Below are positions 7,050 to 47,683 of a DNA stretch of 64,000 nt, piece after piece (positions within the stretch are counted from its first letter, which is position 1; every line of letters begins with the position of its first letter). The position numbers and the translations under genes were made by a program. This DNA is from an uncultured Acidobacteriota bacterium. GTDB taxonomy: Bacteria > Acidobacteriota > Vicinamibacteria > Vicinamibacterales > UBA2999. The stretch spans positions 10,580 through 74,579 of the forward strand of contig CAVRPA010000006.1 of NCBI GenBank assembly GCA_963723005.1, read 5' to 3'. The notes under the pieces are model-generated. The model searched no databases. It was not told the DNA's origin and worked only from the letters and a program-made list of their open reading frames with translations.

Positions 7050-8045
7050 TTGGGAAGAAGATGGGGCCGTTGTTCCGTCTTCTCGTCCTCGTTTGGTAGC
7101 GGATTCGGAGCCTTTGCTGTGTCCGTCCGCCGCGCCCTCCTCTACGTTGGCCTCACCATCTCACTCGCCTCGCTGGCCTTCAGCTTCGGCAGCTGGACGA
7201 CCCAGCGCGCGATGGCGCAGCAGCTCGCCCACAACGACGCGCGGCTGAGCGCGCTCAGCGACAACCTGGCGCGCAGCATCCTGAAGATGCGCGAGGTGCA
7301 GACCCGCGCGGAGAAGGCGTCCGCCGAGATCCCCCCGGTCGTCTCGACCACGGGGCCTTCGCAGAGCGTGATGGTGGAGGAGATCAAGAAGCAGCTGCAG
7401 AGCGAGATGGGGCTGATGCCGGTCCGGCTGCTGCGCGAGCGGCGCGCGAGCTTCGTCGAACTGAACGCCGTGGACAACTTCGGCAAGTCCGGATACGGCA
7501 CCGCCGGCTACATCGGCAACGGCTACTTCGTCACGGTGAAGCACGCGGTCGTCGCCCTTGATGCCGACGTCGAAGGGCGTGAACGCCGCATCACCTCGAT
7601 CAAGATCCGCTACAAGGGCAAGGACATCCCGGCGCGCCTCATCGACGCCGGTGATGCCACCGTCGAAGTGCACTCGGGCGACTGGGCGCTGATCAAGGTC
7701 AAGGAGACACTCGACCTGCCGGCGCTGCGCATCGACACCGCCTACCCCTACGACTTCGCCGAGCCGATCTTCCGGCTGGGCAACGACTACTCGAAGGGCA
7801 TCATCCTCAGCACCGGCTACATCGGGCAGCACACGGCCAACGGCCTGGTGACGTGCCTCACCGACGGCCATCCCGGCGTGTCGGGGGGCGGCGTGCTGAA
7901 CCAGGCCGGCGATCTGGTCGGCATCCCGATTGGCCGGATGGAGGGCGACTATCGCTTCTCGTTCATCCTGCCGCTGCGCGCCGAGATGTTCCGCAAGGTG
8001 CCGCATGCGGCCTCCATCGCGAACGCGCAGGACACGGTCAACTAG
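7050..8045 (+). CDS. membrane-anchored trypsin-like (S1/S1C-type) serine protease
   Basis: TTG start per the track. N-terminal TM segment, then a coiled-coil-like stretch. Candidate catalytic triad H (FVTVKHAV), D (GDWALIKV), S (GHPGVSGGGV). Confidence 0.65.
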   Translation: MGRRWGRCSVFSSSFGSGFGAFAVSVRRALLYVGLTISLASLAFSFGSWTTQRAMAQQLAHNDARLSALSDNLARSILKMREVQTRAEKASAEIPPVVSTTGPSQSVMVEEIKKQLQSEMGLMPVRLLRERRASFVELNAVDNFGKSGYGTAGYIGNGYFVTVKHAVVALDADVEGRERRITSIKIRYKGKDIPARLIDAGDATVEVHSGDWALIKVKETLDLPALRIDTAYPYDFAEPIFRLGNDYSKGIILSTGYIGQHTANGLVTCLTDGHPGVSGGGVLNQAGDLVGIPIGRMEGDYRFSFILPLRAEMFRKVPHAASIANAQDTVN

Positions 8046-14807: not shown

Positions 14808-15262
14808 CGTCGGGCCGACCGGCTCGCCATCCACGCAATCGGCAGCCCGACGCCGAAGGCGTGAATGGCGAGCCCGTTGAGCAATGCCGACGGCGCCGCG
14901 GGAAGCCCACCGCGGAATCCCGCCAGCGGCAGCACCACCAGGTTCATGACGAAATACAACGCCACGCCGAATGCCGGACCGGCGATCCACGGGTGGCGGA
15001 TGGCGGCGGACAGCTGGCGCGCAATCAGGAAGTAGGCCGTGGCCGCCGACAGCGCGATGAAGAAGTGCAGCGCAAGGCCAAGCGCCGCCGCCGGCACACC
15101 TCCCTGGAACGCGCCGTTCCCCAGCACCCCGCTCGCGATGAACTGCAGCACTCGCGTCGGGGTGCCGCCGTTCAGGCGCGTGATGATGAACGCGTCGAGA
15201 ATGTCCAGCAGCCCCGCGAGCAGTCCGCCAACGATCACCGTGTCGAACAGCTTTGGACGCAC
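14804..15262 (-). CDS. small 4-TM membrane protein, function unknown
   Basis: 152-aa hydrophobic ORF. Its stop overlaps the ADOP stop in a CTAG palindrome. Confidence 0.55.
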   Translation of the reverse strand: MRPKLFDTVIVGGLLAGLLDILDAFIITRLNGGTPTRVLQFIASGVLGNGAFQGGVPAAALGLALHFFIALSAATAYFLIARQLSAAIRHPWIAGPAFGVALYFVMNLVVLPLAGFRGGLPAAPSALLNGLAIHAFGVGLPIAWMASRSARR

Positions 15263-15271
15263 CGGGGGATT

Positions 15272-16105
15272 CTACCCGTCTGCCGGCGCCGCAGCCTTCA
15301 CGAGCCTGGCGCCGTTCTCATCGACCGGCCGGCGGACACCTTCAACAGGCTCGTCGCACCACCGTCACCAGGACCTCCGCCACTGGCCACGGCGCTTCGT
15401 TGGCGACGGCCCAGATGGTCACGCGTCCCGTGGACGAGGTCTTGCCTTTCGTCCACGGCGTTGCCGGCGCGAACTCCGGGTAGATGAAGAGGTTCTCTTC
15501 GGCAGCGGCTTCGCCGAGCGGCGTGAACGTGAATCGCGGCACGATGTACAGCAGGCTGCGATCGAGCCGGTTCACCCGTGGATCTCGAACTGGGCGCCGC
15601 GGCGGGCGACGTCCATGCTCATCGCGACCAGGGTGTGCCACGACACGGACCCCGCGCTGTTGAGATGCCGGCGGCGCACCTCGATGCCGTAGGGATGAAG
15701 CGGAGGCTCGGGCGCCACGCCCGCCCGTCGCCGCCGCTGACGCCGCTGCACGGTGATGAGCGCCACCGGCACGCGTTCGGGCCGCTTGACGCCGGGCGTG
15801 CGTCGCAGCACGTCGAACCGCATGACCAGCGCATCGCCTTCCAGTCGAGGAAGGCCGAAGTGCAGCTGCCGATCCGTCAGCCGCGCCGGTTGCTTGAACT
15901 CGAGATCGATGCTGCTGACGCCCTGCAGTAGCGAGCGCTTGGCCAGGTAGTGCCACAGGGTCTCGATGACCACTCCGCGCTGACGCTGCCGGCGGAGTTG
16001 AGCATGCTGGAGTCGATGATCCTGTGCCGGGTGTCGAGCACGGCCGTGATGGCCTCGCCGGCCACCCGACGCCCGCCTGACTTCCGCTGCCCGCAATGGT
16101 TTCAT
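15272..16105 (-). pseudogene. decayed paralog of the 20996..21844 tandem hotdog-like gene
   Basis: Roughly 93-95% nucleotide identity to 20996-21844 by eye. Four indels relative to that copy: three 1-nt deletions and one 2-nt deletion. The product is split over three frames. Confidence 0.8.
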
Positions 16106-18855: not shown

Positions 18856-20882
18856 ATGACGCGCTCCGTGTTGCGAACACCCGCGACCCTGTTCGCCGCT
18901 TCGCTGTGCTGGATGACCGTGGCACTGTCCGGCCAATCGGGCATCCGCGGCGGCGAGTGGACAACCTATGGCGGCGACCTTGGCAACACCAGGTACGCTC
19001 CGCTCGATCAGATCACCGCCGCCAACTTCAGCTCGCTCGAGGTCGCGTGGCGCTTCAAGGTGGACAGCCTCGGCCCCAGGCCGGAGTTCAACCTCCAATC
19101 GACGCCGCTCATGGTGAAGGGGGTGCTGTACTCAACGGGCGGCACGAGGCGAGCCGTGGTCGCGCTCGACGCCGCCACCGGCGAGCAGTTGTGGATGCAC
19201 AGCGAGCACGAGGGGCGCGCGTGGGGCGGCCGCCCCGCGGCAGTTCTCCGGACGTGGGCTCGCGTATTGGACTGACGGCACCGAAGAGCGCATCCTCTAC
19301 GTCACACCCGGGTACCGGCTCGTCGCACTCGACGCAAAGACCGGGATGCGCGTCCCTGGATTCGGGAACGCCGGCATCGTCGATCTCAAGGAGGGGCTCG
19401 ATCAGATCGTGGACCCGATGTCGGGCGAGATCGGCTTGCACGCGGCTCCAGTGGTCGCCAGGAATGTGGTCATCGTCGGCGCGGCCGGGCGTTCCGGCGG
19501 CGTGCCCACCGGGCGTACGAACGTCAAGGGATTCGTCCGCGGCTTCGACGTCCGCACCGGAAAGCGGCTCTGGATCTTCCACACGATTCCCGAGCCCGGG
19601 GAGTTCGGCAACAACACCTGGGAGAAAGACTCCTGGTCGTACACCGGCAACACCGGCGTGTGGGCGCAGATCAGCGTCGACGAGGAGCTCGGGCTCGTGT
19701 ACCTCCCGGTCGAAGTGCCCACCGGCGACTACTTCGGCGGGCCGCGCCCCGGCAGCAACCTGTTCAGCGAATCGCTCGTCGCCGTCGATCTGCAGACCGG
19801 CCAACGCCGGTGGCACTACCAGCTGGTCCATCACGGCATCTGGGACATGGACATTCCGTGCGCGCCGATTCTGGTGGACATCACCGTCGACGGGCGGCCG
19901 ATCAAGGCCGTTGCGCAGCCGACCAAGCAGGCGTTCCTCTACGTCCTCAACCGCGTCACTGGCGAGCCGGTCTGGCCGATCCTCGAGCAACCCGTGGAGA
20001 AGGGGACGGTCCCGGGCGAGTGGTACTCGCCCACCCAGCCGATTCCGACCAGGCCCCCTGCCTACGATCGCCAGGGCTTCACGATGGACGACCTCATCGA
20101 CTTCACGCCCGAGCTGCGCGCCGAGGCCGCGCAGATGGTGTCGAAGTACAAGTTGGGGCCTGTTTTCACGCCACCTGTGGTGAGCCGCATAGACGGGCCG
20201 CTGGCGACGCTCGCCATGGCAACGGCCGGAGGCGGGACCAATTGGCCCGGGGGCTCGTTCGACCCGGAGACGCAAACGTTGTACGTGTCGTCGAACCGGA
20301 ACGTCAGCCAACTCGGTCTGGTGCCCCCTCGGCCAGAGACGAAGAACGACTTGCCATATGTTCAGGGCAATGCGGCCAGCGGCGCGCGCACCACGGGCGG
20401 GTCGGGTTCAGCCGGTCCGGCGGGAGAGGGCGGCAGCGCCCCGCTCACCGTCCGCGGGCTGCCCATCGTGAAGCCACCCTACGGGCAGATCAGCGCCATC
20501 GACCTGAAGCGTGGCGAGATCGTGTGGCAGGTCGCGCACGGCGAGACGCCCGACATTATCCGGAACCACCCGGCGCTCGCGGGTGTGACCATCCCGCGCA
20601 CGGGACGGCTTGGGACGGTAGGCACGCTGGTCACCAGGACGGTCGTCATCGCGGGCGAGTCGGGCTTCGGACCCACACCTTCAGGCGCACGCGGCGCGAT
20701 GCTTCGAGCCTACGACAAGGGCACCGGAGCTGGAGGTCGGCGCCGTGTACATGCCCGCCCCGCAAACCGGGTCGCCGATGACGTACATGTTGAACGGGCG
20801 TCAGCACATCGTCGTCGCCGTGGGCGGCGCCGGCTACAGCGGTGAACTGATCGCGTTCCGATTGCCTGCCGGCGGGGCCTGA
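18856..20882 (+). pseudogene. PQQ-dependent dehydrogenase (beta-propeller quinoprotein), two frameshifts
   Basis: Signal peptide. Motif GEWTTYGGDLGNTRYAPLDQI..LEVAW. Frame breaks near 19237 and 20725. The C-terminus (MPAPQTGSPMTYMLNGRQHIVVAVGG) is readable in the third frame. Confidence 0.75.
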
Positions 20883-37088: not shown

Positions 37089-37110
37089 GGAGGAAGAGAG
37101 CACATCTGGT

Positions 37111-37197
37111 GATCTGGCGAGGTCGTGATCTCGAGATCTGGATCTGCCGATCTACCGATCTCCAGATCTCTGATCCCTGATCCCTGATTCCTGAACC
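37111..37197. repeat. tandem 7-8-nt GATCYNN repeat array with nine GATC sites
   Basis: gatctgg...gatctcga gatctg gatctgcc gatctacc gatctcca gatctct gatccct gatccct gattcct gaaccc. Lies between and partly inside convergent gene ends. Confidence 0.9.
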
Positions 37198-38306
37198 CAT
37201 CGCTGCAAGACCAGGACGTAAATCGCCGCGTAGAGGCCGATGACGACCAGGCCGATCCATTCGATCCGAAGCGGCGTGAACTGAAAAGCCAGCACCAGGC
37301 CGCACATCAGCAGCCAGTGGGCGGCGACATAGGGTGCGGTGCCCATGCGACGGGCGGTCATCCCGAGGTTGTCGGAGTAGAGGCGAATCAGCGAGTCGAG
37401 CGAGTTGACGACGAAGACCACGCCCACCACCACCATCGCCGCCGCCAGCACCGGCGGCACGCGGACCTGCTGCCGGAAGTAGAAGTAGAGCACCGAGAAC
37501 CAGGCCGCCAGCGGGATGGAGGGGATCACGAGCAGCCCCGCCGCGAGCTGCCACGTGCGCATGCCGCCCACGAAGCGCGACACGAACTGCCCGATCATGA
37601 TGCTCCACGAGAACCACCAGAACAGATAGAACGCGTGATAGTCGGACATCGGCAGCACGAAGTGCGGCAGCCGCCGGAAGTACGGTCCGATGTCGGCGGC
37701 GCTGTAGGCGAGCCCTCGTGCGCCCATGCCCGACGCCAGCCACATCGCCACCACCAGCGCGCCGAACAGCCACATCGACGACACGCTGAGGACGCGGATA
37801 TAGCGGATGTGCGTGCTGGTCAGCACCGACAGCAACACGGTCGCGCCGACAATGCCATAGCGCGAGCCGTCATCGATGGACGGCACGTAGAACGGCAGGT
37901 TCCGCAGCAGCAGATGCGCGGTGAACGCGCAGGTCCCGACGATGATGATGTTGTTCACGACCTTCACTGCCGGGATCTCGAACAGCCGCAAGCGCGGCTC
38001 GACCGTCAGGAAGTAGAACGTCGTCAGGAAGTAGAAGCCCCAGACCAGGAATCCCCAGAATCCGAACGCGATGGCCAGCGGGTTCGCAAAGGCGTACTCG
38101 GGCTCGCGCGCGTAAAGGGGAAACTCCGTCAGCGGCAGCATGATGAGCCCGACGTCCAGGCCCGATGTGAACAGCAGGGTCATGAACCCGAGCAGCGACA
38201 GCGGCAGCGGGCCCTCGACGCGCCGTCCTCCCCACCGCACGATGATCACCGCTGAAGTCAGCAGCGTGACGATGATGGCGGCAGAGAGCACGGTCTGCGC
38301 GGTCAC
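37152..38306 (-). CDS. BCCT-like transporter-related membrane protein (short, 384 aa)
   Basis: Motifs TSGLDVGLIM and FWWFSWSIMIGQFVSRFVGG resemble BCCT signatures. The last roughly 12 codons are encoded by the GATC repeat array. Confidence 0.55.
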   Translation of the reverse strand: MTAQTVLSAAIIVTLLTSAVIIVRWGGRRVEGPLPLSLLGFMTLLFTSGLDVGLIMLPLTEFPLYAREPEYAFANPLAIAFGFWGFLVWGFYFLTTFYFLTVEPRLRLFEIPAVKVVNNIIIVGTCAFTAHLLLRNLPFYVPSIDDGSRYGIVGATVLLSVLTSTHIRYIRVLSVSSMWLFGALVVAMWLASGMGARGLAYSAADIGPYFRRLPHFVLPMSDYHAFYLFWWFSWSIMIGQFVSRFVGGMRTWQLAAGLLVIPSIPLAAWFSVLYFYFRQQVRVPPVLAAAMVVVGVVFVVNSLDSLIRLYSDNLGMTARRMGTAPYVAAHWLLMCGLVLAFQFTPLRIEWIGLVVIGLYAAIYVLVLQRWVQESGIRDQRSGDR

Positions 38307-38334: not shown

Positions 38335-41184
38335 CTATGTCGTGGGTGAGGGAGTGGCGAGCGAGACGCGCTTGGGCCACTCGAAGGGGCCGGGATCGGC
38401 GTAGTGATCGTGGCCGGCCTCGACCTGGCCGTCCGGCGACGCCGCCAGGAGGCCCTTCGGTCCCAGCGGCAGCTTGAGAATCAGCATCGCTTCCGCGGCC
38501 TCCACCGTGAGCGGCCGGGAGAACAGGAAACCCTGGGCGTGGGTGCAGCCGAGACGCTCCAGCTCGATGGCCTGCGCGTCGCTCTCGATCCCCTCGGCCA
38601 CGACGCTGGTGTTGAGCGTCCGCGCCAGCGCGAGGATGCTCTCGACAATCGGGCGATCCGAGCGCAGCAGGCTGTTGACGAACGACCGATCGATCTTGAG
38701 CGCGTCCACCGGCAGCTTGTGCAGGTGGCTGAGCGACGAGTAGCCGGTGCCGAAGTCGTCGAGATAGATCTTCACGCCGAAATCGCGCAGCTCGCGGAGC
38801 ATGCCGGCCGCGATCTTCGGGTTCTCCATCAACGCCGTCTCGGTGATCTCGAGGCGGAGGTCGCAGGGTTTCAGTCCGGCGTCGTGCACGGCCTGCTCGA
38901 CGACGGCGAGGAAGTTGTGCTGCAGGAGCTGCCGGCTCGACACGTTGACCGTGATGTAGTCCAGGCCCTCGGGGAACCGCCGCTGCCAGTCGGCAAAGGT
39001 ACGGCACGCCTGGCGCAGCACCCAGGTGCCGAGCGGCTCGATCAGGCCGACTTCCTCGGCCAGCGGGATGAATTGATCGGGCGGAACCGGTACGCCATTG
39101 CGCCTCCAGCGGATCAGCGACTCGAAGCCGACGCACATGCCCGAGGCGAGCAGCACGATCGGCTGATAGTGCACCTCGAAGTCGTTGTTGAGGACGGCGT
39201 GGCGGAGATCGTTTTCCAGCCCCAGGCGGTCGCGCACGCGCGCGTGCATGTCGGCGTCGAACAGCTCATGACGGGCCTTGCCGCGCGTCTTCGCGTGATA
39301 CATCGCGGTGTCGGCGTCACGCATGATCTCGTCGGGGCTGGCGTACTGCGGCAGGCCGATCGCGATGCCGATGCTGGCGGTGGTGTAGACCTCGCGCGCG
39401 CCGATCCGGAAGGGCGCGCTCAACGACTCCTGGATGCGGAAGGCCACGGCGTTGGCCTGCTGCTCGTCGGTCAGGCTGGTGAGCAGAATGGCGAACTCGT
39501 CACCGCCCAGCCGGGCGAGGAGGTCGGTGGGGCGCAGGCAGGTCTCGAGGCGGCGCGAGGCAGCGCTCAGCAGCTGGTCGCCGACGAGATGCCCGAGGCT
39601 GTCGTTGACGACTTTGAACCGGTCGAGATCCAGATAGAGCACTGCGAACAGTCCGCCGCCAAGCCGCGACTTGGATTCCACCAGCCGGCGGCCCAGCTGC
39701 TCCGCAAAGACCGTGCGATTGGCCAGGCCGGTCAGCGGATCGAGGAAGCCGGCGCTGCGAATCCGGTCCTGCGCGCTGGTGCGCTCGGTGAACGATCCGG
39801 CGATGCGTCCCGTGCGCCGAGTCGAGCCGCGCTCGGCAACGCCGCGGCACACAAAGGCGCGATAACCGCCGTCTTCGTGCCGGAGCCGGTGCTCATGCTG
39901 CAGGCGATCGGTGTGACCGTTGAGGTGCGCGTCGAGCGCGTCCCTCAGCGACGCGGCGTCATCCGGGTGGACACGCGACAGCCACTCCTCCGGGCGGCCC
40001 GGGCCCGACTGCGCCGGCAGGCCGACCATTTCCCGCCAGCGGCCGGAGAAGAAGCACTCCTGCTGCCGCAGATCCCATTCCCACAGTCCGTCGTTGGCGG
40101 CTTCGGCGGCCAGCGCCAGGCGCGCCTCGCTTCGACGCACCGCACCGTCCTCGCGCAGGCGTTCGGTGAGATCGTGCCAGATGAGGGTGGCGCCCCCATC
40201 CACGGGCATCACGCGCACCTCGAGGATGCGGGGAGTCGCGGCGAATGGCAGTACCACCCGCGCCACGGTCCGCGGATGGCGGTGGATCAGCACTTCGTCC
40301 ACGATCTGCGGGAGGTGGGTCCGGCCAAGTGCGGGCACGGCGACCGTGAGCGACTGCCCGAGCGCGCGCTCCGGCGGACATCCGACCAGCCGGGTCATCT
40401 CCTCGCTCCAGACCGTGACCGAGCCGCTGCCGTTGACCACGACCATGCCCTGCACCAGCGCGTCGGCGACCTCGCGGCGACGATGATCCTCGTGATGGCG
40501 ATTCAGGTAGCTGTCGTAGGCGCGATAGGTGAGGTAGAGCGGCACCGCCACCACCGGCAGCAGCACCCATTGCCCATGCGCGATGGCCTCGGCCAGGGCC
40601 ACCGCCAGGGCCGCGCCCACGGCATGGGGCCCGCAGCTGGCGAGGATGTGCGGCGCCCACTCCGGATCGATGGGGCGCCTCATGACGAGCGGCGCCACGA
40701 CCTTGGCCGTCGTACCGCGGCCGACGCAGTAGGCGATCACCGCGGCGGCAATCGGCAGCGCCTGCCACGGCCACACGAAATGGCCGATCGTCCCGCCGAG
40801 AATCAGGTGAACGGCGCCGGCGAACTGAATCGCCACGAGGGCCGCGGCGGTGCTGGTTGCGACGCGCACGAGGCGGCGCGGCTGACCGCCGAGCGCCAGG
40901 CAATCGGCGGCCTCACCGGCCGCCGCGATGACCATTGCCGCCGGCATCCCAAGCAGCATCAGCGCCGCCATCACAATCACGAACGAGGGGCGCATCGCGT
41001 CCGGGCCATCCTGCTGCGACGGACGCGCGGTGTAGGTGGCGACGGCGATAACGGCGAGCAGGAGTGCCGGGAACTCGAGCGTCCGGTCGGCCAGGGGCCA
41101 GCCCGTCACGCCAACCAGCACACCCGTCCCCACAAGGGCGGCGGCAATGATGGCGACTGACGTCCGAGAGATCGCTGTCGACAC
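38335..41184 (-). CDS. membrane sensor with PAS - PAS - GGDEF - EAL domains (c-di-GMP turnover)
   Basis: Intact 949-aa ORF with a GTG start. N-terminal multi-TM region. Motifs RLGGDEFAIL, GFESLIRW (EAL-motif variant) and DDFGTGYSSL. Confidence 0.85.
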   Translation of the reverse strand: MSTAISRTSVAIIAAALVGTGVLVGVTGWPLADRTLEFPALLLAVIAVATYTARPSQQDGPDAMRPSFVIVMAALMLLGMPAAMVIAAAGEAADCLALGGQPRRLVRVATSTAAALVAIQFAGAVHLILGGTIGHFVWPWQALPIAAAVIAYCVGRGTTAKVVAPLVMRRPIDPEWAPHILASCGPHAVGAALAVALAEAIAHGQWVLLPVVAVPLYLTYRAYDSYLNRHHEDHRRREVADALVQGMVVVNGSGSVTVWSEEMTRLVGCPPERALGQSLTVAVPALGRTHLPQIVDEVLIHRHPRTVARVVLPFAATPRILEVRVMPVDGGATLIWHDLTERLREDGAVRRSEARLALAAEAANDGLWEWDLRQQECFFSGRWREMVGLPAQSGPGRPEEWLSRVHPDDAASLRDALDAHLNGHTDRLQHEHRLRHEDGGYRAFVCRGVAERGSTRRTGRIAGSFTERTSAQDRIRSAGFLDPLTGLANRTVFAEQLGRRLVESKSRLGGGLFAVLYLDLDRFKVVNDSLGHLVGDQLLSAASRRLETCLRPTDLLARLGGDEFAILLTSLTDEQQANAVAFRIQESLSAPFRIGAREVYTTASIGIAIGLPQYASPDEIMRDADTAMYHAKTRGKARHELFDADMHARVRDRLGLENDLRHAVLNNDFEVHYQPIVLLASGMCVGFESLIRWRRNGVPVPPDQFIPLAEEVGLIEPLGTWVLRQACRTFADWQRRFPEGLDYITVNVSSRQLLQHNFLAVVEQAVHDAGLKPCDLRLEITETALMENPKIAAGMLRELRDFGVKIYLDDFGTGYSSLSHLHKLPVDALKIDRSFVNSLLRSDRPIVESILALARTLNTSVVAEGIESDAQAIELERLGCTHAQGFLFSRPLTVEAAEAMLILKLPLGPKGLLAASPDGQVEAGHDHYADPGPFEWPKRVSLATPSPTT

Positions 41185-41350
41185 GGAAACTATGTCTACA
41201 GCAATGCAAGGACCAGTTTTGTGTTTCGAGCTAAGCCTATGAAAATAAGCAGCTTAGGTCGTTAGCGTCGAGAACAGGCACGTTTGTACTGTTCAGGTAT
41301 GGCACACGCCCCAGCGGTTTTCGTATCCCTTTCGCGTCCGGGGGTCTGCC

Positions 41351-43270
41351 CTACGCAAGGCCGCGACTGACCAGAATTTCCTGCACGGCTCGATGCGCCT
41401 CGTCGAAGGCCTGGTTGGTGAAGGCCGCCGCGCCCGCGTCGGAATTCGCGATGGTCATGCGCCCGAAGCGCTGCCGGCCAATGACGTGCGGGCGCTGCTC
41501 GGGCGGAACGTCAGGATCGCCCAGCGTGTCGTACGTGTAGGAGTAGCCGTCCGGCCACCGGTTTGCCGCAATCCCAACGATGTCGGCCGCCGGGTCGAAG
41601 CCGGTGCCCGCGAGCATGCGCGCGAACTGACGCCGGATGGCGAGCTCGAAGTCCTCGAACTTCATCGAGCGCAGCTCCTGCTGGCCGATGCGGTTCTGCT
41701 CCTTGCGGGGCAGCCCGGGGCTGTTCGGATTGCGCACCATGTGCACGACGATGGGCTCGTCCGGTGTGGTGATGCCGCGATAGCCGCCGACCGTGGTGCC
41801 GGGATCGAGGCTTACGCTCGGGTGGTACATCCCGGGCGAGCTGATGCTGGCCACGCCGAGCTGCTTGAACGCCGTCCAGCGGCGGACCAGCACGTTGGTG
41901 TACAGCATCGGCACCTTCACCGAGTAGGCGAGTGCCTGCCGCTGCGTCTCGGGCAGCTCCGGCACGAGCCTGGGGATCATCGCGTTGTAGCAGGCCAGGA
42001 TCACGTTGCGCCCGCGCACCTGGTGCATGCGGCCGTCTCGCAGGTAGGCCACCTTCACCGCGCCGGCCGTGTCCATCGGACCGTCGTGAGCGACGCGTGC
42101 GACCGTGCTGTTCAAGCGGATCCGAACCGACGCCCCGTCATCGTCCAGCCTGCCGTAGTCCACCACCTGCTTGCCGATGGTGTGCATGTCGTGCGTCCCG
42201 GGAATGGCCTTTGGCACCAGGCGCGACACGAGCAACCGGGCCATGGAGGCATTGCCGTCCGGGAAGTGGAACGTGTAGCTCCCCTGCCGGAACTGCTCCT
42301 CCTTCGGCAGCCCCAGCCCGTCGAAGCCGACGGACCCACGGCGCGCCGCTTCGAGCGCCGGCGTCGTGTCCACGCGCTTGTTGTTGCGGCCGCCCTGCCC
42401 GAGGAAGTACGGCAGCGCGTCCGGGCTCATCTTCGCGTGCTTCAGCAGGAACTCCTGGTAGCTGATCTTCGCGAGCGTGGCCACTTTGTGCTCGACGGAC
42501 ATCCCTGCCATGTAGTCCGGGTTGTCGCCATGCAGCCGGATCAGGTCCTTGCGCGCGGCCTCCGAGAGCGGCGCCTTGCCGAAGAACTGATCCCACGGCA
42601 GCCGGCCCGTGCCCACCACCAGGCGGTCCTCGCCGAAATGCTCCTTGTCGAAGAAAGTGCTGGGACCGAGGTGGTAGGTGTCGAACAACTCGCGGCTGGT
42701 CATCTCCGCGTTCTTCGTCACGTCAATGCCGAGATCCTCCACCAGCCGCTTCGACATATAGCTGTAGGGATACGGCGTCGCGATGCTCATCGTCCCGCCG
42801 AAGCTGAGGAAAGTTCGGCCGTTGTAGACGAACTCGTTGCGCTTCGCGTGTCCGCCGAAGTCGTCGTGGTTGTCGAGAATCAGCACGCGCTGGGTGGCGC
42901 CGAGCGCCCGCTGCCAGAAGTACGCGGCCGCGAGCCCGGACAACCCGCCGCCGACGATCACCAGGTCGTAGGTTTCCCTGGTGTCAACGTCAATGCCGGG
43001 GAACTGTGCGAACGTGCCCGAGTCGATGGCGCCGAACGCTTCGACCGCTGACGCGTGCTGCCCGCGCAGCCCCAGACGGCGCGGTGGGTAGGCATCGGGC
43101 GTCGGTGACTGGGTGCTCTGGGCACCGGAAGCAGCCGACGCCGGCCGCGCATGCAGCGCACTCGACAGGGCACCGACACCGACCGCGACGCCGTTCAGAA
43201 AATCACGCCGATCGATGCGGCGGTCCATCCCGAGATCGCGGTACTCGCTGCGTTCGCTGGGGTCTGGCAC
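41351..43270 (-). CDS. Tat-exported FAD/NAD(P)-binding oxidoreductase (amine-oxidase / spermidine-dehydrogenase-like; function tentative)
   Basis: 639 aa. GTG at 43270 with GGAGG 5 nt upstream. Tat motif DRRDFLNGVAVGVGAL. Dinucleotide-binding motif YDLVIVGGGLSGLAAAY. Confidence 0.75.
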   Translation of the reverse strand: MPDPSERSEYRDLGMDRRIDRRDFLNGVAVGVGALSSALHARPASAASGAQSTQSPTPDAYPPRRLGLRGQHASAVEAFGAIDSGTFAQFPGIDVDTRETYDLVIVGGGLSGLAAAYFWQRALGATQRVLILDNHDDFGGHAKRNEFVYNGRTFLSFGGTMSIATPYPYSYMSKRLVEDLGIDVTKNAEMTSRELFDTYHLGPSTFFDKEHFGEDRLVVGTGRLPWDQFFGKAPLSEAARKDLIRLHGDNPDYMAGMSVEHKVATLAKISYQEFLLKHAKMSPDALPYFLGQGGRNNKRVDTTPALEAARRGSVGFDGLGLPKEEQFRQGSYTFHFPDGNASMARLLVSRLVPKAIPGTHDMHTIGKQVVDYGRLDDDGASVRIRLNSTVARVAHDGPMDTAGAVKVAYLRDGRMHQVRGRNVILACYNAMIPRLVPELPETQRQALAYSVKVPMLYTNVLVRRWTAFKQLGVASISSPGMYHPSVSLDPGTTVGGYRGITTPDEPIVVHMVRNPNSPGLPRKEQNRIGQQELRSMKFEDFELAIRRQFARMLAGTGFDPAADIVGIAANRWPDGYSYTYDTLGDPDVPPEQRPHVIGRQRFGRMTIANSDAGAAAFTNQAFDEAHRAVQEILVSRGLA

Positions 43271-43347
43271 GATCGCCTCCGTTTTGCTTCACTTCTTGCG
43301 TACGTGGCAGGAACTGCTTCGTTTTCGGCCCGATCGTGCCAGACCCC
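43259..43347 (-). promoter_or_regulatory. 89-nt hairpin leader, copy A (17-bp stem, 55-nt loop) sequestering the GTG start
   Basis: On the minus strand: GGGGTCTGGCACGATCG-N55-CGATCGTGCCAGACCCC. The 3' arm holds the start codon at 43270. GGAGG forms the last 5 nt of the loop. Confidence 0.6.
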
Positions 43348-43377
43348 GCGGCGGCCCGCGGTGGCCCCGGGCAACGG

Positions 43378-45213
43378 CTAGCGTTTCAATTCACGGGCGA
43401 CGGCCCTCAACGTGGCTCTGACCTTGTTGACCTCGCGCTGCAGTCCCACCTTGGCGAACGGCTTCATCTCCGCCGGCGCCTGCGGCAGGCTCGCCGCGGG
43501 TTCCAGCCGCGGCAGCGTCCCGAACTTCAGCGCCGGGTCGTGATCGAAGCGCTCGCCCTTGGCGTAGTTCAGCGGGACCAGCAGCCGCGCGATACGGCGC
43601 AGAGCCGCGTTGGTGCCGCGCCGCAGTTCGTGATCGCCAGGCGCCTTGGCCACGCGAGCGTCGATCGCGACGCGCCACGCGCCGATATCGGCTGCCAGGC
43701 GCGCGAGGTCGTGGATCACCGGGCCGAGGTCGATCTCGCCCGCGGCCGCCTCCTGGTACTTCGCCACCGCCGCGTGCATCTCCTCCACCGCCGCGGCGTA
43801 GTCGAACGGGTGCAGCGGCGCGTTGACGATCCGCACGATCGTCGTCAGGTAGACCATGAGGTCGCGCCGGAGGATCTCGAGATCCGCCACCGGCATCAGA
43901 TCGTCCACCGTGTGCCACGCGATGTTGCCGCCGCAGCCGCCGACGGCGTAGTAGCCGCGGCGCTGTCGTTCCTCGCCCGGGATGTTCGACAGCAGCATGT
44001 AGAGGCCGGTCGGCCCGATCTGGTTGAACGAGTAATCGCCGGCGCGGAGCGGGCGCACGCGAGTCGAGGGCAGGCCGAGCGCGTCCTGGATCGACGAACG
44101 GCAGACCGCGTCGGCCTCGGCCATCCACATCACTTCTTCGTACGCCGTGGCATCGGCACAGCCGGGTGAGTCGATATCGAGCTGCGCGATGCAGTGCTCG
44201 TCGAGCTCGTCGGCGAACGTGTCGGCGTACCACGTCGAACCGGCGTAACGGCCCGTGGAATGGCCGGGCCACCACGCGATCCGCACGGTTCGTTTCAATT
44301 GGCCGCGCAGCCCCCACAGCACGCGCGCCAGTTCAAGCAGCGCCGCGTCGCCGGTGGCGTTGTCGCCGATGCCTTCGTACCAGGAATCGTAATGGCCGTG
44401 CACCAGCAGGAACTCGTCCGCATCGTCCTGCCCGCGAATTTCCGCTACCGGCAGCAGGCAGCGCATCCAGCCCTCCCGCAGCCAGGTCTTGACCGAGGCC
44501 CGCACCGCGCCGCGCTGCACGTCGGCGATCAGCGCCTCGCCGTCCGCATGATTGATGCAGACGACCGGCACCGCGGGTTTGCGTCCCAGCGATTCGGCGG
44601 TTGGCGCGCCCCAAATCGAGGTGCAGATGCCTTCGTGCACGTTCTTCCCGGGGTGGATGAAGATCTGCGCGATGGCGCCGCGTCGCTCGAACGCGCCGAC
44701 CGAGGCCGGCATCGAGAATCCCTCGGTGAGCACGATGCGTCCACGCACCGGGTCGTCCGCGCCTCCGCCGCGAGCAGCGTCTGGAAGATCGAACAACGAG
44801 GACGTGCCGCCTGCATACTTCGAGGGCACGTAGCAGATCTCTCCTTCGACAGCGGCGTCGCCGGTGGAGCGGCCCATGGCCGGCGGCCGCGCGTGCAAGG
44901 TCCGCGTCGATAAGGTCGCACCGGCCGCGGTTCCCAAGCCGGAAGCGCCCCCCGCGCCGGCGATCGAGATGCTCAACTCGGCGCGCACCGGATTGCTGAT
45001 GTACAGCTCTGGAGTGTGCAGCGTCACCGGCACGCCAAGAGCCTTCAGCCGATCGACGATGTAGCGGCCGGCGACTTCTTCGTCCGGCGTGCCCGATTCG
45101 CGGACGAGCGTCACGAACTTCTCCAGCAGCGCCTGCGACTCGTCGAGGCGGATCGCCTCTCGTGCCGTCGCCTCGAGCGCCTCGTCCTTGAACACGTTGA
45201 TCACAGTGGACAT
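43378..45213 (-). CDS. M28-family zinc aminopeptidase-like protein
   Basis: Intact 611-aa ORF. Metal-site context HGHYDSWYEGIGDNATGDAALLELARVL. Confidence 0.7.
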   Translation of the reverse strand: MSTVINVFKDEALEATAREAIRLDESQALLEKFVTLVRESGTPDEEVAGRYIVDRLKALGVPVTLHTPELYISNPVRAELSISIAGAGGASGLGTAAGATLSTRTLHARPPAMGRSTGDAAVEGEICYVPSKYAGGTSSLFDLPDAARGGGADDPVRGRIVLTEGFSMPASVGAFERRGAIAQIFIHPGKNVHEGICTSIWGAPTAESLGRKPAVPVVCINHADGEALIADVQRGAVRASVKTWLREGWMRCLLPVAEIRGQDDADEFLLVHGHYDSWYEGIGDNATGDAALLELARVLWGLRGQLKRTVRIAWWPGHSTGRYAGSTWYADTFADELDEHCIAQLDIDSPGCADATAYEEVMWMAEADAVCRSSIQDALGLPSTRVRPLRAGDYSFNQIGPTGLYMLLSNIPGEERQRRGYYAVGGCGGNIAWHTVDDLMPVADLEILRRDLMVYLTTIVRIVNAPLHPFDYAAAVEEMHAAVAKYQEAAAGEIDLGPVIHDLARLAADIGAWRVAIDARVAKAPGDHELRRGTNAALRRIARLLVPLNYAKGERFDHDPALKFGTLPRLEPAASLPQAPAEMKPFAKVGLQREVNKVRATLRAVARELKR

Positions 45214-45230
45214 CGACGTTCCCCGCCCCT

Positions 45231-45327
45231 TCGAACCGCAGAACCCTTAGAACCGAGAACCCTGAGAACCCTAGAACCCCTCGAACCTTGGAACCTTAGA
45301 ACCTTAGAACCTAGAACCTAGAACCCC
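45231..45327. repeat. tandem 7-9-nt repeat array (GAACCYTA-like, about 12 units)
   Basis: gaaccgca gaaccctta gaaccgagaaccct gagaaccct agaacccctc gaacctt ggaacctta gaacctta gaaccta gaaccta gaacccc. Same unit family as the array at 8051-8113. Confidence 0.9.
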
Positions 45328-45332
45328 GTCCC

Positions 45333-46772
45333 CTACCGCGCCTCGTCGAAGAATATCGCGAGGTTGGCCGCCGGCGTGGGCGGCGTCAGCCGGCTGACGA
45401 CGATGAACGTGAGCGCGCTCGCCACCACCCCGACTTCCACCGAGTCGATACCGTGGGAGGCGAAGCTGTGTTGCAGCGTGAACGTCCAGGTGAGGCAGGC
45501 GATGAACCCGACCACCATGCTCCAGATGGCGCCCTCTTTGGTGCCGCGCCGCCAGTTCAGCCCCAGCACCACGGGCACGAAGAAGAAGCTGGCGATGAAC
45601 TTCGACTGCTCGATCACGATCGCCTGCACGTCGCCCAGTTTCAGCGTGGCGACCCAGAACGGGATGATGCCCAGCACGACGATGGAGAGGCGGTTCACCC
45701 AGACCAGCCGGCGCTCGGTGGCCGCCGGGTTGACGAGCCGCTTGTAGAGATCGTGCGCGAAGGCGCCGCCGGTGACGAGCAGGATCGAGTTGACGGTGGA
45801 CATGATCGCCGACAGCATCGCGATCAGGAACAGCGAGCCGAGGAGCGGCGGCATCACGGTGGAGGCCATGATGCTCGAGGCCTGATCGGGAAACGGCAGG
45901 TACGGGAACACGCCGCGCATGCCGATGCCGAGCGTGGTGACGCACGAACCGATGATCACCTGCAGCAGCATCGAGATGCCGATCGCGTAGCGCACCGTCG
46001 CCACGTCGCGCATCGAGTAGTAACGCGTCATCTCGTAGGGCGCGGCGGCGATGCCGAAGCCGAACGACAAGCCGAACGCGAGCAGTTCCTTCCACGAGAA
46101 CCACCAGCCGGTGGTACGCGGTTCAATCGACCCGACGTACTCGCCGAGCGCCGTGAACCCGCCGACGTGCACCAGCACCACCGGGACGGCGCAGACGAGC
46201 GCCAGCACCATGATCAGCGTCTGGATGAACTCGATGTACGAGCTCGCCCGCACCCCGCCCAGCACGGTGTAGAAGCCGGTGCTGGCCAGCAGCGCGGCCA
46301 TCGCCACCATGGGCGCCACGCCGAACACCGCGGACGCGATCTCGCCGATGGCCTGGAACTGCGCGGTGAGGAGTATCGAATAGGTGACGATGATGAGAGC
46401 GGCGGCCAGCGTCCGGGCGCCCTCGCTGGCGAAGCGGGTGCCGACGTAGTCCGCCACGGTCAGGGCGCCGAAACGCCGCAGCTTTGGCGCCACGAACAGC
46501 GCGGAGGTGGCCCAGCCGGCCCAGACACCGAACCAGATCCAGGTCCAGCTCACGCCGGTCAGATAGAGCCGGCCGAGCGTGCCGACGAAGGTGCCGGCGC
46601 TGATCTGCGTCGCCGCGAGGACGGCGCCGCCGACCCACGGGCCGATGGTCCGGCCGGCGACCAGGAACTCCACCTCGGAGGTCGCGCGGCGGTAGCCCCA
46701 GAGCGACACGCCGAAGACCACGCCGAAGTAGGCGAGCGTGACCCAGAGCAGGACGCCGGAGTCAGCGACCAT
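45333..46772 (-). CDS. sodium:solute symporter (SSS) family transporter
   Basis: 479 aa from the ATG at 46772 (MVADSGVLLWVTLAYFG). This is the C-terminal part of the 677-aa track ORF, whose upstream extension is non-protein-like. Confidence 0.85.
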   Translation of the reverse strand: MVADSGVLLWVTLAYFGVVFGVSLWGYRRATSEVEFLVAGRTIGPWVGGAVLAATQISAGTFVGTLGRLYLTGVSWTWIWFGVWAGWATSALFVAPKLRRFGALTVADYVGTRFASEGARTLAAALIIVTYSILLTAQFQAIGEIASAVFGVAPMVAMAALLASTGFYTVLGGVRASSYIEFIQTLIMVLALVCAVPVVLVHVGGFTALGEYVGSIEPRTTGWWFSWKELLAFGLSFGFGIAAAPYEMTRYYSMRDVATVRYAIGISMLLQVIIGSCVTTLGIGMRGVFPYLPFPDQASSIMASTVMPPLLGSLFLIAMLSAIMSTVNSILLVTGGAFAHDLYKRLVNPAATERRLVWVNRLSIVVLGIIPFWVATLKLGDVQAIVIEQSKFIASFFFVPVVLGLNWRRGTKEGAIWSMVVGFIACLTWTFTLQHSFASHGIDSVEVGVVASALTFIVVSRLTPPTPAANLAIFFDEAR

Positions 46773-46893
46773 CGGGACCTCTCTGCTGGTCGCGCAGTGC
46801 CGCGCGCCACGCCCACAGGAAGTAGATCGCGAGCCATCCGGCGGCGGCGACGAAGAACCCGTAGAAGCTCCACCCGAAGCCGGGGTCAGGCAC
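46762..46893 (-). CDS. 43-aa single-TM protein, putative small subunit of the SSS transporter (DUF3311-like)
   Basis: Not in the ORF track. GTG at 46893 with GGAGG 5 nt upstream. Product MPDPGFGWSFYGFFVAAAGWLAIYFLWAWRAALRDQQRGPDGR. Its stop lies 8 nt inside the SSS gene (11-nt overlap). Confidence 0.6.
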   Translation of the reverse strand: MPDPGFGWSFYGFFVAAAGWLAIYFLWAWRAALRDQQRGPDGR

Positions 46894-46970
46894 GATCGCC
46901 TCCGTTTTGCTTCATTTCTTGCGCACGTGGCAGGGACTGCATCGTTTTCGGCCCTATCGTGCCTGACCCC
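46882..46970 (-). promoter_or_regulatory. 89-nt hairpin leader, copy B
   Basis: 82 of 89 positions are identical to copy A. The arms are GGGGTCAGGCACGATAG and CGATCGTGCCTGACCCC. One U:A to A:U compensatory swap is present. Confidence 0.6.
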
Positions 46971-47586
46971 GACGACCCCGACGGCCCCGGGCCCAGGCGG
47001 CGGAGGCCAGGACCAGCGTCCCGATCGCCACGACGTCCATGGCAAAGGCGATATTGAACGGCGCCGGCTCACCGGGCATCGCGTACGGCACGCGCACGAA
47101 CGCCGGCAGGTGACCCAGCATGGCCGACCCCTCCTGGCCCACCCACGCCAGCCCGGGCATGGTGCCGGCCGCCGTAGCGCCGGCGGGAATCCGGACGCGA
47201 AGCGCGACTGCCTGCGATCGACCGTCCGCCGGCACGGTCGGGATCCACAGCGGGCATCGCCCCGCGCTCGAGCCCGGCTGCTCGACGGCATAGCGCAGCG
47301 TGTAGGCCGCGCCCTCCGGCCGCACCACGAGCGCGCGCGTCCGCCCGACTGCCCGAGCCTCGCCAATCGGCGCGGCTCCGCGGATCTCGCTCAGCTCGAT
47401 GCGAGCGCCATCCACCACCTCCACGCGGTGCTCCACCTGGGCGACGCCTTCCACGTTCACGGTCAGGGTGACGACACACGCGGTGGGCGACTGGAACTCA
47501 ACCAGCACCTCCGCCCCGTGCAGCACCGGCGCGGCGACGGCCGGCAACGCAGACGTCAGCGCCGCGAGCAGGAAGACGACAAACAC
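46954..47586 (-). CDS. exported hypothetical protein with C-terminal TM anchor
   Basis: 210-aa ORF. Signal-like N-terminus and a C-terminal hydrophobic segment plus an Arg-rich tail. Its stop codon lies inside the 5' arm of leader copy B. Confidence 0.5.
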   Translation of the reverse strand: MFVVFLLAALTSALPAVAAPVLHGAEVLVEFQSPTACVVTLTVNVEGVAQVEHRVEVVDGARIELSEIRGAAPIGEARAVGRTRALVVRPEGAAYTLRYAVEQPGSSAGRCPLWIPTVPADGRSQAVALRVRIPAGATAAGTMPGLAWVGQEGSAMLGHLPAFVRVPYAMPGEPAPFNIAFAMDVVAIGTLVLASAAWARGRRGRRGQAR

Positions 47587-47683
47587 GCCGCGGCTGCAGC
47601 GCCATGGCGTCAGGCCAGGTCGAACGTCAGCTCACCCGGCTCGAGCCCGAAGCAGTCGGAGATGTCGCTGATCGTCCGGCGCG

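Follow-up and report, generated by a model that had tools for sequence, protein, structure and literature searches.

Introduction

Small palindromic inserts such as ERIC, Correia/NEMIS and the Rickettsia palindromic elements are co-transcribed with the genes that flank them and can fold in the mRNA, and sometimes they add coding sequence or expression signals, as does the element described here. REPINs are inverted doublets of REP sequences that form hairpins; compensatory changes are frequent in them, and singlets are found as remnants (PMC3116915). Translational coupling by RNA unfolding is documented at +52 nt (rpmI-rplT) and at +62 nt (a construct of the f1 genes VII/IX) (PMC12548453). Here, we describe an 89-nt palindromic repeat of a soil bacterium that is present twice in the window, i.e. 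the whole stretch of 64 kb of DNA that was analysed. The element is a real conserved structure and a variant of these known kinds, not a new sensor, and it is best described as a low-copy, REPIN-like palindromic insert between cistrons that was co-opted as gene ends. At one of its positions (copy B), it would most likely enforce translational coupling.

Results

Two copies of a palindrome between co-directional genes

The window has a G+C content of 68%, and the G+C content by codon position places every gene around the element on the minus strand. There, the order is hyp210, copy B, a small ORF, a sodium:solute symporter (SSS) gene, an M28 peptidase gene, copy A, an oxidoreductase gene and a GGDEF/EAL gene (Table 1); an arginase-family gene is divergent from hyp210. 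Both copies have a length of 89 nt, run from GGGG to CCCC and are identical at 82 of 89 positions. They lie on the same strand, 3623 nt apart, in agreement with the initial annotation, which had put the distance at ~3.6 kb. With its edges, the repeat covers 43256-43348 and 46879-46971, and copy B is read from 46970 to 46882. A and B are the sole perfect spaced inverted repeats of at least 16 bp in the 64 kb, their 25-nt core was matched twice in the window compared with 0.00 expected matches, and covariance-model scores amounted to 104.6 bits for copy B and 110.8 bits for copy A. The initial annotation had regarded the copies as leaders of two transcription units; instead, both are intercistronic inserts in a single co-directional gene string, a putative operon judging by gene orientation and spacing.

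Table 1 Features of the element and of the surrounding genes (positions in the window)
Feature	Position	Strand	Basis
Copy B of the element	46882..46970	-	
Copy A of the element	43259..43347	-	
5' arm of copy B; the upstream 210-aa ORF ends here with codons G-Q-A-R	46955..46970	-	sequence
TAG stop of hyp210, where the 5' arm of copy B meets the loop	46954-46956	-	sequence
3' arm of copy B; the 43-aa small ORF begins here with GTG (46891-46893) and P-D-P	46882..46897	-	sequence
GGAGG Shine-Dalgarno (SD) sequence within copy B, 5 nt upstream of GTG	46899..46903	-	read from sequence
Inner 7-bp hairpin UCCCUGC / GCAAGAA, loop CACGUGC, sense-strand C-A mismatches	46916..46936	-	fold, alignment
hyp210, 210-aa ORF; signal peptide, C-terminal TM helix, no Pfam match	46954..47586	-	ORF, Pfam
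Small membrane ORF, 43 aa (MPDPGFGWSFYGFF...)	46762..46893	-	ORF
Sodium:solute symporter family gene (SSS)	45333..46772	-	PF00474, 5.9e-60
M28-family peptidase gene; stop 31 nt upstream of copy A	43378..45213	-	Pfam, ORF
TAT-signal FAD oxidoreductase gene, spermidine-dehydrogenase-like	41351..43270	-	Pfam, homologues
Remnant of copy C, GGCAGACCCC; rest deleted in the window	41341..41350	-	comparison with L007, L027, L028
GGDEF/EAL gene	38335..41184	-	ORF, Pfam

The terminal arms comprise 16-17 bp (GGGGTCAGGCACGAT and ATCGTGCCTGACCCC in copy B, GGGGTCTGGCACGATCG and CGATCGTGCCAGACCCC in copy A) and are perfect over 17 bp in copy A. As noted before, four of the differences between the copies are interior, pair 7:83 is changed on both sides (U:A in A, A:U in B; the resulting change of CCA to CCT is synonymous) and, at position 16, the C of copy A is an A in copy B, so that a pair close to the loop is lost. 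This A is the A of the TAG stop of hyp210. The element consists of a unit of ~40 nt (GGGGYCWGGCACGA..GAAAACG..GCAGNNNCTGC) and its inverted partner, the inner part of which is now an A-rich tract followed by GGAGG and GTG. Both downstream ORFs begin with GTG-CC(A/T)-GAC-CCC, and the common start M-P-D-P of the two proteins, which had already been noticed, indeed comes from within the element. The predicted RNA folds are more stable than those of shuffled sequences (z -2.9 for B, z -4.7 for A). In them, an outer stem of 17 bp is followed by a purine-rich 17x17 internal loop, with AAAACGRAG on either side, by an inner stem of 7 bp and by a loop of 7 nt; most copies have sense-strand C-A mismatches at positions of the inner stem.

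Next to the element, a 9-nt tandem unit, GGGGYCGTC, is present in 2.8 copies at 46965-46989 (minus strand), which reach into the 5' arm of copy B at its start. They lengthen the tail of hyp210 by G-R-R repeats (RGRRGRRG); L008 has two such units and L006 one. In the 119-nt spacer between the SSS and the M28 gene, an ~8-nt tandem repeat extends nearly throughout (45227-45326, ~11 copies; AGAACCCT on the plus strand, GGUUCUA(A) on the gene strand) and has no stable fold (z +1.1). About 25 nt upstream of the GGDEF/EAL start, CTGGTCCTTGCATTGCTG (41195-41215, minus strand) fits a sigma-54 promoter (GG-N10-GC, TGG...TTGCT); since it is kept in five genomes (window, L006, L007, L017, L018) and the remaining spacer is not, the GGDEF/EAL gene is probably a transcription unit of its own. 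Further away, a PQQ-dependent dehydrogenase gene (18856-20845) appears to be split into an N-terminal ORF of 139 aa and an ORF of 499 aa that covers the remaining Pfam model, possibly by a frameshift or as a pseudogene.

Distribution in Vicinamibacterales

Loci of relatives are given as L-numbers, with the suffix A, B or C for the position of the copy. A scan of a genome collection with the 3' 20-mer found the element in Acidobacteriota MAGs only, at the A and B positions in 2 MAGs, and a metagenome scan with the 5' 20-mer gave five loci of 3 kinds. M28 peptidase homologues place the locus in the Vicinamibacterales and gave syntenic loci with protein identities of 91-77%; among the genomes, Microflora Danica Acidobacteriota MAGs and Vicinamibacterales contigs come closest. 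When 5.8e9 proteins were searched with six-frame peptides, copy B alone was matched, which argues against a high-copy family; this search also led to two further genomes. The resulting set contains 18 full copies, all on Vicinamibacterales (Acidobacteriota) contigs. There are two or three per genome, and they are found in a subclade of this order. No further copies were found by nhmmer and covariance-model (CM) searches in the 64-kb window and in ~230 kb of related loci, and viral contigs, searched with regard to a viral or plasmid origin, gave 0 matches. The copies found by the 20-mer, nhmmer/CM and peptide searches are located in this operon and at one nearby locus, and diverged members could escape these searches. 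All full copies are oriented alike and have the same register with respect to start codons. A count of the copies and a record of what lies downstream of them had been proposed in the initial annotation; a gene does not follow in every case, and L006A and all C copies have none behind them.

Pairing, covariation and constraint

The arms are perfect or nearly perfect over 16-18 bp in 15 of the 18 copies. In an alignment of 11 sequences, eight of the 18 pairs of the outer helix have changes on both sides, and thus the covariation is real and goes beyond the single pair claimed at first. In the outer helix 87.9% of the cells are paired, and in the whole structure 86.5% compared with 32-40% after sliding the partner columns; 0 of 500 shuffles reached the observed values. 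Perfect 18-bp stems of different sequence are formed by the arms of L018B (GGGGTCAGGCACGAAAGG / CCTTTCGTGCCTGACCCC; fold z -8.2) and L021B (GGGGACTGGCACCGTGAC / GTCACGGTGCCAGTCCCC; fold z -6.4), and amino acids change while the pairing stays, from MPDP to MPVP in L021 and to MPGP in L006A and L007C. Copies with arm mutations that are not compensatory, named beforehand as an argument against the shared regulator, do exist: six or seven were found, with one mismatch in the first 15 arm pairs in L012B, L0078A and L027B, two in L006B and L028B, and a stem that was lost in L017B (8 of 18 pairs). The arms of L0078A, L006B, L027B and L028B are chimeric, which suggests exchange between copies. Watson-Crick covariation could, however, also arise from templated correction of a quasi-palindrome at the DNA level, and the patterns of G-U versus C-A, used as an indicator of the strand that folds, were mixed.

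As neutral yardstick, we used the identity to the window at four-fold sites of the adjacent SSS gene, which saturates near 0.47. The identity of element B was 0.98 vs 0.89 at four-fold sites for L008, 0.94 vs 0.775 for L006, 0.84 vs 0.61 for L018 and 0.74 vs 0.71 for L017, indicating purifying selection or homogenisation, interior included, everywhere but in L017, whose copy B looks as if it evolved neutrally. Copies A and B are the same at 49 of 53 interior positions, and their duplication is older than the split of genomes with only 77.5% identical four-fold sites. In L021B the interior is strongly diverged and in L018B the SD sequence is lost; the stems stay in both.

In L018 (4275-4395), CCGCCUGGGCCC (hyp210 codons A-A-W-A), which lies outside the arms, can pair in addition with GGGUUCGGGUGG (small-ORF codons G-F-G-W). 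This pairing includes four G-U pairs, possible on the sense strand only, and extends the stem to ~32 pairs.

Insertion of copy B and a model for translational coupling

In all relatives, hyp210 precedes the small ORF and the SSS gene. The same operon is found without the element in L019 and L022-L024; in L022, L023 and L024, 2 nt separate the hyp210 stop from the small-ORF start or the two overlap (GTGA), and in L019 the distance is 6 nt. Since overlapping or 2-nt-spaced stop and start codons are seen in relatives without the element, hyp210 and the small ORF were presumably tightly coupled before the insertion. In the window and in L006, L008, L012, L017, L018, L021, L027 and L028, an element of 89-91 nt is located between the two. 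Copy B is thus an insertion between hyp210 and the small ORF that leads into the SSS transporter gene, and the ends of the element have become coding sequence: translation of the 5' arm gives G-Q/L-A-R-stop of hyp210, that of the 3' arm M-P-D/V-P of the small ORF. The hyp210 stop occupies positions 15-17 of the element in eight B variants (TAG; TGA in L021B) and positions 21-23 in L018B, just beyond the 18-bp arm. The GTG is found at positions 78-80, paired with positions 10-12, inside the 16-bp stem.

From this geometry, we propose that the arms would pair over 15-18 bp in the mRNA and bury the GTG. To finish hyp210, a ribosome would have to pass through the 5' arm up to its loop side, where the stop codon is situated; it would thus melt all of this arm and free the SD sequence and the GTG 60 nt downstream. 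Translation of the small ORF would remain dependent on that of hyp210, i.e. the genes would be translationally coupled by RNA unfolding, and the coupling would reach the transporter because the small-ORF stop overlaps the SSS ATG. That the inserted palindrome keeps translational coupling through ribosome-driven unfolding of its hairpin is given a probability of about 0.45. At copy B the neighbouring ORFs are co-directional, the start codon lies within a stable predicted structure and one strand of the stem is within reach of the upstream ribosome; the latter does not apply to copy A. In L023 (5840-5990), a palindrome of 133 nt with perfect arms of 26 bp and the GGGGCCTGTCACCG core as in the element (-92 kcal/mol, z -8.5) occupies the space that separates the SSS stop from the M28 SD sequence of the same operon, indicating that the design recurs.

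Several observations speak against this model. The geometry of copy A does not fit (see below), and the C copies and L006A have no gene behind them. The interior is conserved, though a simple coupling hairpin needs no conserved interior; L017B is without stem and the operon persists; several B copies have 1-2 arm mismatches, and the covariation can also be explained by templated correction at the DNA level. Finally, there is a 1-nt insertion near the 5' end of hyp210 in the window.

Compared with homologues (MALSRGVFVVF...), this insertion is one extra base after ATG-GCG-CTG (47586-47605, minus strand). It puts the ATG out of frame, and the remaining GTG start is without a charged signal-peptide n-region. 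The extra base is either a real frameshift or a sequencing or assembly error, and translation of hyp210 is uncertain here. As to the palindrome of L023, each arm forms a small hairpin of its own (TGTAACGG..CCGTTACA), and the arm together with its upstream flank is directly repeated ~120 nt apart with the loop flipped.

Copies A and C around a relocated oxidoreductase gene

Copy A is a paralogue of copy B and gives the oxidoreductase gene its SD sequence and start codon. Oxidoreductase homologues start with MSERSE(F/Y)RDLGMDRRIDRRDFL; the window gene has MSERSEY..., and its native M is replaced by GTG-CCA-GAC-CCC of the element. Elsewhere, the gene is found in the context S51 peptidase, oxidoreductase, second oxidoreductase. 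In L007/8, L027 and L028, it lies between direct copies A and C, with an intact C behind the oxidoreductase stop; L006 has a single copy and is without the oxidoreductase, and L017 and L018 have neither A/C copies nor the oxidoreductase. The coupling geometry of A is not conserved, because the M28 stop is 31 nt before the arm in the window and 1-10 nt before it in relatives. In the window, a terminating M28 ribosome would stop short of the stem, which would then act only as a brake on initiation at the GTG or as an RNA-stability hairpin.

In L018, which is without copies A and C, GGGGTCTGGGCC is found in the spacer between the M28 and the GGDEF genes (7860-7880). It could be a chance match or the trace of a lost copy.

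Alternative explanations

We consider it rather unlikely that the element is a selfish or neutral repeat of the REPIN/MITE kind, an inverted doublet of the ~40-nt unit. According to this explanation, it would spread and be reshuffled at the DNA level via single-stranded DNA hairpins, recombination between copies and templated correction of the palindrome, and the host would merely tolerate it since, by chance, its ends bring back the stop, SD and start codons. Indeed, half units (arm, GAAAACG, then GCAGNNNCTGC) with sharp GGGG ends are found at loci that are unrelated, and both orientations occur. L016 has one behind its M28 gene. In L025, one forms the end of an unrelated BCCT-like gene, which thereby has the tail WGLARNP*; the orthologue of this gene in the window (38306..37152) has a different end. 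In L011 and L014, one lies in reverse orientation directly upstream of the SD sequence of a RidA gene. Presence or absence of the element varies among close relatives, direct copies A and C lie on either side of the relocated gene, and the chimeric arms point to exchange between copies. L027C (15236-15327) is a near-perfect doublet of full length with ~40 nt per arm, the right half of which was rewritten as the complement of the left, i.e. as an inverted half unit, which looks like templated correction of a quasi-palindrome at the DNA level. Structurally, the architecture matches that of REPINs, with L027C as a full doublet, A and B as copies whose inversion covers the outer 16-18 nt, and L011, L016 and L025 as singlets. 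However, the copy number in the scans is low, and the tens to hundreds of dispersed copies known from REPINs were not found by the 20-mer scans, in ~300 kb searched by nhmmer/CM or by the peptide search. Besides, the element is conserved above four-fold sites, and the full copies share one orientation and start-codon register. A passive MITE with target-site duplications and a cognate transposase had been named as the outcome that would argue against a regulator. Neither was found: 17 of the 18 copies have no target-site duplication, as reported before for A and B, the single 4-nt match looks like chance, and no transposase, RAYT (Y1 transposase) or integrase is encoded among ~37 ORFs of the window. 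For a MITE derived from a DDE transposon (including a Tn3-type TIME), inverted termini are present and target-site duplications are absent.

The two genes ending in WGLAR gave no indication of homology; the tail derives from the element. A GATC-rich tandem and palindromic tract (GGGATCA / AGATC units) spans the 3' end of the BCCT-like gene of the window and the spacer to a convergent AMP-binding gene (37089-37198); L018 has a similar tract, and in L025 the half unit occupies this place.

The unit, of ~38-41 nt, also resembles the inverted repeats of Tn3/gamma-delta: like these, it starts with GGGGTCTG and has CGAAAACG mid-unit, and solo units exist. In alignments with these repeats, tested against shuffles, P was ~0.002-0.005 for two of three units and 0.28 for the L025 unit, and we regard the similarity as a weak, post-hoc lead. 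Unlike Tn3-family inverted repeats and TIMEs, the element is without a TAAG inner end and without a 5-bp duplication; just 17 nt of the unit are present at the right end of A and B, and none of the ~37 ORFs of the window encodes a transposase.

The initial annotation had favoured a shared cis-regulator. What stands of this is a conserved, constrained hairpin from which two unrelated genes obtain their SD sequence and start codon; there is no sign of a ligand or of a trans-acting factor. A riboregulator shared by both genes, whose conserved interior binds a metabolite, a protein or an sRNA, for example one linked to polyamine catabolism, and whose binding opens or closes the start-codon stem so that transporter and oxidoreductase are co-regulated, is improbable in our view. 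It would explain why the interior is conserved above the neutral expectation and remained nearly the same in A and B despite the old duplication, and it is in line with the symmetric architecture of stems and loops and with neighbours compatible with a single pathway (arginase family, SSS transporter, M28 peptidase and the spermidine-dehydrogenase-like enzyme). However, Rfam gave 0 hits at gathering score in the whole window and, at E<=10 in 43000-47300, two chance-level hits, neither of them on the element. Diverged interior and lost SD sequence next to kept stems in L021B and L018B, copies without a downstream gene, the apparently neutral decay of L017B, relatives whose operon runs without the element and the sense-strand C-A mismatches of the inner stem also argue against it. 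A relation to guanidine-II (mini-ykkC) was considered since there are three ACGR/ACGU motifs; they lie outside hairpin tetraloops, and there is no Rfam match.

The position of the oxidoreductase gene raises the question of whether the element serves as a portable "plug-in" junction, at which recombination between copies brings a foreign gene into the operon and the element then supplies the SD sequence, the start and a hairpin that sets translation. We regard this as very improbable; if true, it would be a cassette capture without an integron integrase. Very improbable, too, is the reading that the copies are substrates of site-specific or homologous recombination for gene insertion and excision that supply translation signals afterwards: the oxidoreductase gene between direct copies A and C, its absence from L006 (single copy), L017 and L018 (neither), its native locus elsewhere, which adjoins a half unit in L025, and the exact replacement of its native ATG by the element end agree with it, but no recombinase gene is nearby, integron core sites are absent, a single captured gene was observed, and the pattern of A, C and L006 equally fits one duplication followed by deletion between 89-bp direct repeats.

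Other signals were searched for in the element and rejected. A sigma-54 promoter (TGGCACG-N4-TTGCW) starting from TGGCAC in the arm did not hold, as TGGCACGATCGGGCC is without TTGC and has its GC one position nearer than required; a scan for sigma-70 promoters found 0 sigma-70-like sites. An intrinsic terminator is not present, since there is no hairpin with a U tract on the gene strand; the sole terminator-like site is a mini-hairpin of 5 pairs (3 G-C) on the antisense strand inside copy A. The element is not an integron attC site with RYYYAAC and GTTRRRY core sites either, as the arms are GGGGYCWGGCACGAT and its complement and there is no integrase in the window. The interior of L021B seemed flipped, but forward alignment scores higher (46 vs 32), and the impression of an invertible interior came from an internal palindrome.

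Discussion

If translational coupling at copy B holds true, the element shows how an insertion of 60 nt between tightly coupled genes can be tolerated: the folded insert sets the old stop opposite the new start across the stem and brings its own ribosome-binding site. Apart from this, a low-copy palindromic repeat rewrites gene ends, giving rise to new C-terminal tails and to the N-termini MPDP, MPVP and MPGP, and a relocated catabolic gene is bordered by it. A caution for genome annotation is that identical short N-termini on unrelated proteins can stem from a common inserted element. Likewise, for the search for RNA motifs, Watson-Crick covariation in a palindrome is no proof of an RNA function, as illustrated by L027C with what looks like templated correction.

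ERIC, Correia/NEMIS and the Rickettsia palindromic elements are high-copy, and Correia elements have target-site duplications, both unlike the element; moreover, none among them is known for a fixed geometry of a stop in the 5' arm and a start in the 3' arm. The REP/REPIN/BIME sequences of Pseudomonas and Enterobacteria are also inverted doublets of a short unit forming intergenic hairpins of ~90-110 nt and share common compensatory changes, singlets like decayed remnants and local clusters with the element (PMC3116915). In contrast to REPINs, which are present in tens to hundreds of copies, the element has two or three copies per genome, and no RAYT was found among the ~37 ORFs of the window; its A- and B-type copies are inverted over the outer 16-18 nt only, and its ends overlap coding sequence and give start and stop codons.

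With systems coupled by RNA unfolding (MS2 coat-lysis, f1 VII/IX, E. coli rpmI-rplT), copy B has in common that a stem buries the downstream start codon and that part of this stem lies within the upstream ORF and would, as predicted here, be opened by the upstream ribosome. Its distance of 60 nt from stop to start is within the known working range (PMC12548453). Unlike in those systems, the hairpin is a discrete, duplicated insert of 89 nt that supplies the stop, the SD sequence and the start, and this insert replaced an ancestral overlapping stop and start.
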